A stretch of 11,465 nt of DNA from a virus (lineage: Duplodnaviria; Heunggongvirae; Uroviricota; Caudoviricetes). How positions within the stretch are numbered: position 1 is the first letter of the stretch; the number at the start of each line of letters is the position of its first letter. The stretch lies in IMG/VR virus record IMGVR_UViG_2534681766_000006, one strand, 5' to 3'. Below, one piece after another: positions 1,392 through 9,777 of this stretch. A program made the position numbers and the translations under genes. The notes under the pieces are model-generated. The model saw only the letters and a list, made by a program, of their open reading frames with translations. It ran no database searches and was not told the DNA's origin.

Positions 1392-1696
1392 TATTTCACC
1401 TCTTGCTGTGACATTGTTGAAAAATGGATACCAGCTCGTTGCTGCCAGACGATCCAACCGAGAGTCATATCCCATGCCATGTATTCGTTATCGCCGTTTT
1501 TTGCTCTCCGACGATCTACTAAGTCACCGAAACGCTTTTCCATGAATAATTCATAGGCTTCGCGTTCATCTGGCTCTACTTCCAGAGATACGAGTGCGAT
1601 TTCATAAGCACGGCGCTCAATATCGTCTCGAACCTCTAGGCTGCTGATTCGTTCTTTGATTTCTTTAATCAGTTCTTTATTGGTAAATGTGGTCAT
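1391..1696 (-). CDS. yfdT: Early-left operon protein, 101 aa, acidic; YfdT-like by size and position
   Basis: ORF with TAATG coupling to both neighbours; matches CPS-53 YfdT by length and gene order as I recall them, not by sequence comparison. Confidence 0.55.
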   Translation of the reverse strand: MTTFTNKELIKEIKERISSLEVRDDIERRAYEIALVSLEVEPDEREAYELFMEKRFGDLVDRRRAKNGDNEYMAWDMTLGWIVWQQRAGIHFSTMSQQEVK

Positions 1697-2058
1697 TATG
1701 CTCCAGCCTCCGGTGCTTTTGGCATTACTGCCCAGTGAGTGATATTGACGTTTTCAAGGTCCCCGACCTGAAATGTCCACTGCCATTCTCCGGTTTCTTT
1801 TTGTCCCCAGGTGTACCAGAGAGAACGCCAGCCAATCAGCCAGCCTTCTCCATTAGCATCAAATAACAGAACACTTTCATTTGCTGGTGGCAGTTCAGCT
1901 GACACTGGTATTATTTTGTTTTCCAGTGCCGCACATTTAGCTTCAAGCGCGTCGAATTTACGTAACAGGTACTCAGCATTTGTTTCGTTCACTTTCAGAT
2001 CTCGCGGTACACATTTCCCGCGAAGAAACCCTTCCATTTCGAAAACATTCATGCGCAT
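1696..2058 (-). CDS. yfdS: Early-left operon protein, 120 aa, Trp-rich C-terminus (possibly DUF551); YfdS-like
   Basis: ORF with GGAG 9 nt upstream of the ATG at 2056-2058; stop overlaps the next start; size and order match CPS-53 YfdS as recalled. Confidence 0.55.
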   Translation of the reverse strand: MRMNVFEMEGFLRGKCVPRDLKVNETNAEYLLRKFDALEAKCAALENKIIPVSAELPPANESVLLFDANGEGWLIGWRSLWYTWGQKETGEWQWTFQVGDLENVNITHWAVMPKAPEAGA

Positions 2059-2255
2059 TTGCGTAACTCCGATAAATCGTTAAAACGTTCCATAAACATC
2101 CCGTAGGCATGACCCGGTGCCAGTGGAATCACGTTGAACATCTCTGTTGCCGGGATGCCTTCCAGTACAGGCCAGAAAGAGCCATCATCAAGCCCGAGAT
2201 CGCGGCGTTCGGTTGCCAGCATGATGAGATCGGCATATTTCACGGGTGTACTCAT
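2049..2255 (-). CDS. yfdR: C-terminal portion (68 aa) of an HD-domain phosphohydrolase (YfdR/YfbR-like), in a different frame from the N-terminal portion
   Basis: MSTPVKYADLIMLATERRDLGL resembles the region after the HD motif in YfbR-type 5'-deoxynucleotidases; its ATG sits in an ATGA overlap with the stop of ORF 2252..2584. Confidence 0.5.
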   Translation of the reverse strand: MSTPVKYADLIMLATERRDLGLDDGSFWPVLEGIPATEMFNVIPLAPGHAYGMFMERFNDLSELRKCA

Positions 2256-2584
2256 AACCGGGGTAACCCGTATTTCTCACGGATTACGGCGTCTATTTTT
2301 TCTTCCATCCGTTTATAGTCAGGAAGAAGGCGTTTCAGTGGTGCGGGAATGTCCTGGCAATACGCTTCTGTTGCATCATGCATTAACGCTTCAAAAGCAA
2401 ATTCCTGCGGCACCAGCTGGCTGCAAAGAACCGCATGTTGGGCGACGCTGTAGAAGTGCGAAAGATGACCGGCAAAGCGACAGATATTTGAAAGGGAAAC
2501 CGCGATATCGTTAATATCGATGTCGTCTTTATTTATCCTGTCATAATAAAAATGCTTCCCGGAAAAAGTTTTAATAAATGACAT
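2252..2584 (-). CDS. yfdR: N-terminal portion (110 aa) of an HD-domain phosphohydrolase (YfdR-like); start at internal Met with GGAGAACAAA-ATG
   Basis: HD motif residues H..HD..D (HAVLCSQL, EALMHDATEAY, QDIPAPLK). The two parts sum to about 178 aa, the size I recall for YfdR. Adding one C to the CCCC run (plus 2260-2263 GGGG) would fuse them as ..EKYGLPPVMSTPVKY.. Confidence 0.6.
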   Translation of the reverse strand: MSFIKTFSGKHFYYDRINKDDIDINDIAVSLSNICRFAGHLSHFYSVAQHAVLCSQLVPQEFAFEALMHDATEAYCQDIPAPLKRLLPDYKRMEEKIDAVIREKYGLPRL

Positions 2585-2711: not shown

Positions 2712-3536
2712 TCAGGCGGTGAAAGTACCAATAAAGGTTTCTACTTTGCTGTCCTTGAATTTCTCAACAAGCAGATCACGAAATTCGTTAGCCATTTCTT
2801 CCTGCACCGCCTCCAGCTGAATAATGCGCAGAACCAGTACAGGACGATCGCCAGTGATAATACTGAGGCGTAATTTAAACGGACGTTCTTTCAGGCCTTC
2901 AAACGGAACGCATTTAAATTCAAATGCCACTGGCATAATGTCTTTGGTCTTCGCTTCGACAGACTCCATCAGGGAGCGTTTGCCGCTGAAGTCATTGTCT
3001 TCAAAATCAGCGGTCTGGTTTGCTTCAATCGTGATTTTACGGACTGCCGCAGCCGCTTTTGTTGCCTGAATGGCATCACCATTAGCATCAAAGCCCACAA
3101 GGTAGTCGGCCCAGTCTTCGATCCATTCTGCCAGTGACTTCTGGGAGTTACGCTCGCCGTTAACAGACAACAGAGCAGAGAACGGTGCTGTCTTTTTCAG
3201 TTTGAGAGTGGCAGTGTTATCTGCGTGACCTGGCTCATCAATAGTACCCAGGTTAAGCACACTGACGGCACGCATATTATCGGCATCGATAAAGCAGCGG
3301 GTGCCTTCATCTGCAAGATCTTTAGAATAACGGGTAAAGTCATCGATGCTGGCAGTGGAAAGCGCACCACGGAAACGGAAACGATTTAAATTAAATTTTT
3401 CCAGATCATGAATGCGGAAATTCTCAGGCAATGCCACAGCATCGGCACCAATCTTACTGATAATTTCATTAACACCCTGAGCAGAAATAAGGGCATGGAT
3501 TTGATTAATTGCGGTTGCGTCTAAGTTCTGAGACAT
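2712..3536 (-). CDS. yfdQ: YfdQ-like protein (DUF2303 family), 274 aa
   Basis: Full-length 274-aa ORF with GAGGA RBS; size and neighbourhood (P-Q-R-S-T order) match CPS-53 YfdQ. Confidence 0.85.
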
Positions 3537-3601: not shown

Positions 3602-3964
3602 TTAACGACCTGCTGCGCGGAGTTTTCCGTCAGGTTCACCGGCAAGAGTCAGTAATTGTCCCTGGTCTTCCTGCAGAATAGTCAGGCGACCACCGCGATT
3701 GACATACATCGGCGTTTCGGTGGTGTCTTCTTCGGAAATTTTCCCGCGGTTAGTTGGGCGAACATATGAGAGTTTGTGTTTGATTTTCACACGGTTCTCA
3801 TCAAACGGTTCGATTTCCAGATTGAGTGAGACCTTCCCTTTGGTTTTCGTGTTCATCACACCGGAAGCGACCTCACTGAGAACTGCGCCGATTTTGGTTT
3901 CAAATACGCCGCCGTCCAGCCCCCCGATAAATGCCTGCACATCAGTACTGCGTTCGCTAGCCAT
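3602..3964 (-). CDS. yfdP: YfdP-like early protein, 120 aa
   Basis: Start chosen at internal ATG 3962-3964 with GAGGAG 8 nt upstream; the N-terminal extension of ORF 3602..4129 is Arg/Cys-rich GC-region junk. Confidence 0.7.
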   Translation of the reverse strand: MASERSTDVQAFIGGLDGGVFETKIGAVLSEVASGVMNTKTKGKVSLNLEIEPFDENRVKIKHKLSYVRPTNRGKISEEDTTETPMYVNRGGRLTILQEDQGQLLTLAGEPDGKLRAAGR

Positions 3965-3979
3965 TTTGCTGCTCCTCAT

Positions 3980-4430
3980 CATATCGACCCTGCAAGGTCG
4001 GTTGGTTTCTCCACAAAACAGAGAAGAACACCTGCGGTGGCAGCCGCCCGGATGGATTGGGTTATGAGCCCGTCGTCCGGTGATGCTCTTCTCTGTTTTG
4101 CAAAAAAGGACGGTACCAGCCGGAAGCAAGGGTACAAACTGGTACCGCCAGGACTACACACAGCATAAAGTTGTGGTGCCGGGTGCCTCCCGGTGCCTGG
4201 CGAAGGTTGCACACCAGGCGGGGGGGTATCCACAGAAGGTCGACTGTCAGCCTCAACCTTAACCCGCGTGCGCTGAGCCGCATTCACCACAACGCTAAGG
4301 ATTCTCTCTGGTTGAAAATACTTAGCTGTTATGTGCCTGCTTTTAGCCACATCAGGCGAGGTGGACCTGGTTATTCCCCAACAACAAGGATTCGGTTAAT
4401 CTGGATATCCCCAACAACAATAAGAGTATT
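3980..4430. other. GC-rich, ORF-poor, inverted-repeat-rich region; candidate structured RNA or leader of the early-left operon, or long 5' region of the convergent moron
   Basis: 14-bp perfect inverted repeat CAAAACAGAGAAGA (4014-4027) / TCTTCTCTGTTTTG (4087-4100); 9-bp stem CGGTACCAG (4111-4119) / CTGGTACCG (4139-4147); further CCGGG/CCCGG and CCTGG/CCAGG pairs; ORFs here are Pro/Gly/Arg-rich and implausible. Confidence 0.35.
4375..4420 (+). repeat. Two copies of the direct repeat TCCCCAACAACAA (4375-4387 and 4408-4420), 33 bp apart, just upstream of the moron start
   Basis: Exact 13-mer duplication read directly; flanking TAT(T) also conserved; GGA motifs lie between the copies. Confidence 0.6.
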
Positions 4431-9161: not shown

Positions 9162-9484
9162 CGACGTTAACTCAATGCCAGCAGCAGGGGCTGGATATGC
9201 TGATTTCTTACCAGCAAGAACGTGGCTTTCCGCCAACCAATCAGGAGGTGGCAACCATGCTGGGATACCGTTCGGTGAATGCAGCGGTGGAGCATCTTCG
9301 CGCACTGGAGAAAAAAGGCGTCATCACGATAAAGCGTGGCGTGGCCCGGGGGATAACTCTTCATACCGCGGTGAAGGACGACGACAGCGAGGCGGTCGGG
9401 ATTATCCGCGCACTGCTTGCCGGTGAGGAAAACGCCAGGCTGCGTGCAGCCCACTGGTTACATGAGAGGGGCCTGAAAGTATGA
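9158..9484 (+). CDS. LexA N-terminal DNA-binding-domain homolog lacking the S24 peptidase domain, 108 aa
   Basis: LTQCQQQGLDMLISYQQERGFPPTNQEVATMLGYRSVNAAVEHLRALEKKGVITI aligns at roughly 40-45% identity by eye with E. coli LexA residues ~4-70; no Ser/Lys catalytic domain; ATGA coupling to Dam. Confidence 0.8.
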   Translation: MTTLTQCQQQGLDMLISYQQERGFPPTNQEVATMLGYRSVNAAVEHLRALEKKGVITIKRGVARGITLHTAVKDDDSEAVGIIRALLAGEENARLRAAHWLHERGLKV

Positions 9485-9777
9485 AGCTGATCTTGCCTTT
9501 CCCTCCCAGCGTGAACACGTACTGGCGACACCCCAACAAAGGGGCGTTTGCTGGTAAGAGTCTGATAAGCGCAGCGGGGCGCAAATTCCAGAGCGCGGCG
9601 TGCGCAGCAATAGTTGAGCAGTTACGTCGTCTGCCGAAACCAACGTCGGCACCTGCTTCAGTGGAGATCGTGTTGTTTCCTCCGGATACCGTGGCATTTG
9701 AAGAGAAGTATGGCTCCCAGCTGGAGCTGATATTTCGTTTTATCGATCGCGCACTGGCGATTGGTGTGCTGGCCTGA
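9481..9777 (+). CDS. RusA-family (Holliday-junction resolvase)-like protein, 98 aa, with divergent or shortened C-terminal half
   Basis: N-terminus [13 protein letters not shown] matches RusA LPWPPS.N.YYRH, and ..VEIVLFPPD matches ..IECHMPD; the Asp-rich catalytic segment (RRRRDLDN.. in RusA, recalled) is not recognisable. Confidence 0.6.

Follow-up and report, generated by a model that had tools for sequence, protein, structure and literature searches.

The question raised by this locus is whether a prophage yfdR gene that appears in two pieces represents a genuine mutation, an error of sequencing or a two-piece arrangement that works as such. The window, which is the whole stretch of 11,465 nucleotides that was analyzed, contained two open reading frames (ORFs) of 110 and 68 aa at 2049-2584 on the minus strand, and these overlapped in the tetranucleotide ATGA. 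A sequence-only reading had described the two ORFs as one YfdR-like HD-domain gene split by a 1-nt frame change at a G4/C4 run, and had offered three explanations: an inactivating frameshift, a homopolymer sequencing error or an ATGA-coupled design. Translation and alignment confirmed both ORFs, and the evidence selected the genuine frameshift over the other two explanations. It is very probable that the window carries an inherited 1-nt deletion in yfdR, which made the gene a pseudogene with loss of function. The features of the locus are the following.

2712..3536, minus strand: yfdQ (DUF2303), the upstream neighbor in the yfdP-Q-R-S-T module (ORF list, annotation of relatives).
2252..2584, minus strand: upstream piece of yfdR, a 110-aa ORF ending in EKYGLPRL and a stop (translation, alignment to intact yfdR); it consists of YfdR residues 1-108, two out-of-frame residues (RL) and the TGA stop, and holds H40 and H69-D70, with weak Pfam YfbR-like and HD_3 matches.
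2263..2287, minus strand: imperfect 10-bp hairpin, GUAAUCCGUG-AGAAA-UACGGGUUAC, reaching as far as the run's first C.
2260..2263: run of four G (plus strand) or four C (minus strand), the site of the 1-nt deletion; five in intact alleles.
2259..2259: polymorphic base beside the run, a minus-strand G in the window and A in the closest relatives (alignments).
2252..2255, minus strand: ATGA overlap, in which the TGA stop of the 110-aa ORF lies over the Met111 ATG that starts the 68-aa ORF.
2049..2255, minus strand: downstream piece of yfdR, a 68-aa ORF starting MSTPVKYADL and corresponding to YfdR residues 111-178 (translation, alignment); it holds D119, the fourth HD ligand, and helices 113-129 and 161-177 (structure model).
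1696..2058, minus strand: yfdS-like gene, its ATG lying over the final 10 nt of yfdR (ORF list, annotation of relatives).

In the gene region, the window differed from the intact yfdR of strain AMSCJX02 by two substitutions and by only one gap, which was 1 nt long and located at the run. As evident from the alignment, the run context was TTA-CCCC-GG in the window, whereas it was TTA-CCCCC-AG in AMSCJX02; other intact alleles read CCCCCGG, and their 91-nt surroundings matched the window except for a single base. The proposed loss of one nucleotide from the C-run was seen directly in these alignments to intact alleles. The prediction that an extra C would give a continuous ...EKYGLPPVMSTPVKYADL... 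reading also held, as the intact homologous protein reads exactly this across the break. Upon addition of one C at 2260-2263, the window encoded a 178-aa protein identical to K-12 YfdR at 176 of 178 positions, and the exact repaired protein was present on at least 1000 public contigs, compared with 11 contigs for the exact 110-aa product. The identity and the recurrence of the repaired protein place the split-yfdR reading far beyond chance. The window copy itself does not contain the single uninterrupted ORF of approximately 178 aa. The internal ATG of Met111 was already present in intact E. coli alleles, yet Met111 was not conserved across the wider family.

Over 11.4 kb of comparison with JNEC-KY175, the closest complete relative, no other small indel was found within any gene, and the only other 1-nt gap was at the junction of a 1.9-kb deletion. 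This deletion was located at window 9683-9691 relative to JNEC-KY175 (L002 11193-13103), where the aligned pieces overlapped by 9 nt, and it takes out the 3' end of a rusA-like gene, a KilA-N gene and most of a DUF968 gene. Additionally, a small minus-strand gene at approximately 3979-4290, between yfdP and a divergent 171-aa ORF, contained a G7 run at 4217-4223; of the six annotated relatives that were inspected, five list it as 'hypothetical protein, frameshifted'.

The neighborhood of the split gene comprised intD, yfdT, the yfdS-like gene, yfdR, yfdQ, yfdP, a LexA-family repressor gene, replication genes, quuD and a porin gene. When the ORFs were compared with annotated relatives and K-12, the yfdP-yfdQ-yfdR-yfdS-yfdT synteny was found to be present in the window; this neighborhood, the HD residues H40, H69-D70 and D119, and the near-identity to K-12 YfdR bore out the assignment of the gene as a YfdR-like HD protein. 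The K-12 YfdR (b2361, CPS-53/KpLE1) differed from the repaired window protein only by K16R and V23D, matched it at 519 of 537 nucleotides and had the same yfdP-Q-R-S-T neighborhood. In contrast to the window gene, the K-12 gene is intact, is located in a prophage at argW/dsdC rather than argU/intD, and has CCTCCT in place of the C-run, so that it is without this slippage site. The sequence-only reading had mentioned CPS-53, which is correct for K-12 YfdR itself but not for the window gene; the window element, a lambdoid prophage, occupies the argU/DLP12 site, with intD, and is not CPS-53. The label 'cryptic' was dropped for this prophage, since JNEC-KY175 has full head and tail genes and since two nearly identical phages, PhiR29 and PhiR49, whose yfdR was 99.4% identical, have been deposited as phage genomes.

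We compared YfdR with its homologs and with solved structures. The residues H40, H69, D70 and D119, which make up the H...HD...D signature, were invariant in 25 homologs, and in the window these ligands are divided between the two ORFs. The break falls within residues 109-114, a variable stretch and the least conserved part of the family, and in the AlphaFold model (pLDDT 86.7) it is located in the loop 105-112 between helices 88-104 and 113-129. The model showed an HD fold with 2GZ4 as the best match (TM 0.76-0.79) and weaker matches to OxsA, YfbR and HDDC2. This best match is the HD-fold protein Atu1052 from Agrobacterium tumefaciens, the closest solved structure (E = 4e-14 over residues 19-175), which is approximately 25% identical to YfdR, chromosomal and without known function. 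Among the profiles, the Pfam YfbR-like family PF12917 reached 24.3 bits, just under its gathering score of 25.9, and HD_3 scored 17 against 22.5, while the NCBIfam YfbR equivalog NF003009 scored 19.9 bits against a cut-off of 122. YfbR, the characterized E. coli 5'-deoxynucleotidase (PDB 2PAR/2PAU), shares the HD-type metal site with YfdR, whose match to the Pfam YfbR-like family is weak; it is only a distant relative in fold (TM ~0.45).

The 5'-deoxynucleotidase activity and DnaA binding discussed here are taken only from the literature on K-12 YfdR (PMC4776307). In that report, the nucleotide affinities of YfdR were far weaker than the ones found for YfbR, the protein bound DnaA domain I in a Phe46-dependent manner, and multicopy yfdQRST inhibited replication initiation; deletion of the yfdQRST cluster did not significantly alter how replication was regulated at 37 °C (PMC4776307). 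What the sequence-only reading had stated, namely that YfdR binds DnaA and that yfdQRST overexpression inhibits initiation, agrees with this report. A literature search pairing YfdR with deoxynucleotidase gave no match in the searchable literature.

Related assemblies deposited under other records carried the same C4 allele. It was present in the E. coli 2730350 draft (GCA_000356325.2), whose identity to the window was 100% across 8584 nt, and also in GCA_049985905.1 and the Logan assembly ERR4899327, which differed from the window by 6 and 4 SNPs, respectively. An exact-sequence look-up of the 110-aa product read 24 contigs, and the allele also occurred in metagenome and Logan assemblies. A homopolymer error in sequencing or assembly of the source is therefore highly improbable. 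What speaks for such an error is a set of four bases extending G/C runs, found in the window and in the identical 2730350 draft but missing from the sister assemblies; these sisters, L003 and L005, are without the suspect bases and still have C4, and the genes of the 11.4 kb hold no further small indel. The frameshift does not belong to the suspect base calls, because the sister assemblies share it.

The suspect bases are a separate observation. The bases at 3921, 4223, 5658 and 6801 were private to the window and the 2730350 draft and absent from L003 and L005; all four lengthen G/C runs, and three are changes of GGT to GGG. A fifth GGT to GGG difference, at 9189, was seen in the comparison with JNEC-KY175 alone. 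The pattern formed by these five positions resembles systematic base-call error, and the private bases look like either such an error or a mutT-like A:T to C:G signature.

To judge how common the split is, we examined its frequency. A megablast search with 1900-2750 against 5426 complete E. coli genomes indicated that approximately 3000 genomes hold the region, which is annotated as yfdQ, yfdR (5'-deoxynucleotidase) and a phage protein, and the best matches were 852 nt long against the 851-nt query. The C4 allele was then sought with a 45-mer centered on the run, such that every 28-nt seed word had to span the run, and was found in 14 of the 5426 genomes; intact alleles were found at about 2200 places (898 C5-GG and 1326 C5-AG). 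IMG/VR contained C4 on 4 contigs and C5 on at least 120, with no C6 allele, and one contig with C4 was found in metagenomes. None of the 49 deposited phage genomes that carry yfdR had C4. Homologs down to approximately 67% identity were all single proteins of 175-180 aa, and none of those at approximately 67-76% identity, from Enterobacter, Salmonella, Citrobacter, Buttiauxella and others, was split. A conserved two-gene arrangement was rejected on these allele frequencies and on the single-ORF distant homologs. The locus also does not behave as a phase-variable one, as the tract is only 4-5 nt long and C4 accounts for less than 1% of copies.

The sequence-only reading had held that the same two ORFs in other genomes, with a conserved stop, would indicate two real genes. 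The same two ORFs do occur in other genomes, but they are rare (<1%) and nested among intact alleles, and all four C4 copies inspected were annotated by RefSeq as a 'frameshifted' pseudogene, so that they do not represent two real genes. These RefSeq entries ('yfdR, 5'-deoxynucleotidase, frameshifted' in SCU-306, CFSAN061769, APEC E19057 and TW14425) have the same C4-GG lesion at the same position as the window, while they lie in other prophages at other integration sites and differ from the window haplotype by at least 8 nt outside the run. The window gene is an ordinary rare pseudogene allele, of a kind already flagged as 'frameshifted' in public annotations elsewhere. In five drafts (L018-L022), contigs start inside the yfdR C-run, 6 nt before the internal ATG. 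These breaks probably arose where assembly graphs split because multiple prophage yfdR copies diverge at the A/G site, and such contig starts probably account for some of the 68-aa 'protein' entries in databases.

We also compared the C4 copies with one another. The 16 copies formed 9 haplotypes, in which SNPs 10-25 nt from the run varied. Outside the run, L026 was identical to two intact alleles, while the window haplotype differed by 1 nt from intact C5-AG alleles, by 3 nt from the closest C5-GG allele and by 8 nt from the closest C4 haplotype besides itself. A single origin of all C4 alleles is contradicted by L026, by the distances of the window haplotype and by the run-flanking SNPs. In contrast, L009, L010, L006 and L150 had a common private synonymous variant 25 nt from the run, which makes them one lineage. 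From these groupings, the C4 alleles fall on roughly six haplotype backgrounds, and the inspected copies represented four or more prophage contexts, namely argU, tRNA-Pro, a phage with a PAPS reductase gene, and SCU-306. The best fit is slippage that recurred, possibly accompanied by some recombination among the prophage copies. The C4 haplotype of the tRNA-Pro-site prophage, which is probably behind 11 complete-genome matches with identical scores, was also present on 2 IMG/VR contigs, and its recurrence indicates that the split has been tolerated for some time. In every C4 allele found, GG came directly after the run; C4-AG was absent from the complete genomes, the IMG/VR contigs and the metagenome contigs, although C5-AG is the commoner intact form. 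This confinement of the deletion to the C5-GG context is the remaining curiosity of the locus. By inspection, no convincing quasi-palindrome or direct-repeat template was found that would join the A to G change and the C deletion as one event.

Other independent yfdR lesions were present in L013/L016, L014 and L143. In L013/L016 (5672-6207), whose prophage adjoins holD/rimI/yjjG, a 1-nt deletion approximately 30-40 nt upstream of the C-run, apparently in an A6 run, gave the same 110 + 68 aa split with a different tail. L014 (5670-6207), at the CPS-53 site, had a +1 insertion giving 102 + 68 aa, and in L143 an early frameshift led to a stop at codon 17. In SCU-306 (L147 3823-4345), the C4 yfdR was also shortened at its 3' end (523 nt), and the gene after it was frameshifted too, suggestive of further decay of this prophage.

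The split gene could still work as a two-piece protein, if termination at the TGA were followed by reinitiation at the ATG and the fragments reassembled the HD fold. The ATGA overlap fits this proposal, as do the position of the break in a surface loop between two helices of a confident model and the retention of all but two residues; moreover, among the 9 C4 haplotypes whose gene is full-length, neither piece had a secondary lesion, and 11 complete genomes probably carry one and the same C4 lineage. The two lost residues, the loop position, the missing secondary lesions and the tolerated tRNA-Pro-site haplotype also count against a pseudogene. Nevertheless, we consider functional reassembly unlikely, given that the allele is rare (<1%), is at the tips of the variation beside intact alleles, is missing from the phage genomes carrying yfdR and has no counterpart among distant homologs, in which Met111 is not conserved. 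The ATG is not preceded by a Shine-Dalgarno sequence, and the metal ligands would be divided between both chains; the substitutions private to C4 (two synonymous and two non-synonymous) gave no sign of constraint in a test without power. A related proposal is that C4 acts as a recurrent switch, limited to the C-run followed by GG, which either yields a two-chain YfdR via ATGA or serves as a reversible off-state of a DnaA-binding inhibitor and is tolerated or favored in several prophage lineages; to this we give only a slim chance.

Restoration of full-length YfdR by programmed recoding, either through a -1 ribosomal frameshift or through transcriptional slippage at the run, seems next to impossible. 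The location of the lesion in a homopolymer is its sole support. A -1 shift would be required, and, as reasoned from the sequence, A-CCC-CGG is not an X-XXY-YYZ slippery site, while a +1 slip on CCC-C would lead into the wrong frame. For transcriptional slippage, a run of four C is too short. The downstream region showed no stimulatory structure (fold z = -1.4), and the allele is rare rather than conserved, so that a programmed ribosomal frameshift site was rejected on slippery heptamer, structure and conservation alike. Adaptive loss, in which inactivation of yfdR would be favored since YfdR interferes with DnaA and replication initiation, is very unlikely as well. It would accommodate the several independent lesions (C-run, A-run, +1 insertion and early frameshift), the occurrence of C4 on about six backgrounds, and the reported DnaA binding and inhibition of initiation by overexpressed yfdQRST (PMC4776307). 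Disrupted alleles, however, make up approximately 1% or less of copies, and deletion of the cluster was without significant effect on replication regulation at 37 °C (PMC4776307).

Inherited inactivation by a 1-nt deletion accordingly remains the preferred reading, and its likely course can be outlined. The change from C5 to C4 most likely arose by replication slippage, to which the hairpin at 2263..2287 is no more than a possible aid; it is not a significant RNA structure (z = -1.4 over a 76-nt stretch). The reading frame then stops two codons past the deletion, and the predicted 110-aa product keeps H40, H69 and D70 and loses D119 and the two C-terminal helices. With D119 and these helices missing, the product is expected to be catalytically dead and is probably unstable, which makes the gene a pseudogene. 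We infer that the window YfdR has lost both its enzymatic and its DnaA-binding function. The 68-aa remainder could be made only by termination-reinitiation at a chance ATGA overlap. Translation of the yfdS-like gene may be coupled to the downstream yfdR piece through their overlap, and the split might possibly reduce translation of yfdS. Selection on the gene is presumably weak, as the early-left prophage operon would be repressed in lysogens and E. coli genomes often have more than one yfdR copy.

For annotation, these results mean that the 'hypothetical proteins' of 110 aa and 68 aa listed in databases derive from a single gene, of which each is a fragment; beyond annotation, their importance is small. 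The argU prophage copy of this DnaA-binding phage gene is most likely inactive in the source strain, and studies of yfdQRST in the lineage of the window should not assume a functional YfdR from the argU locus.
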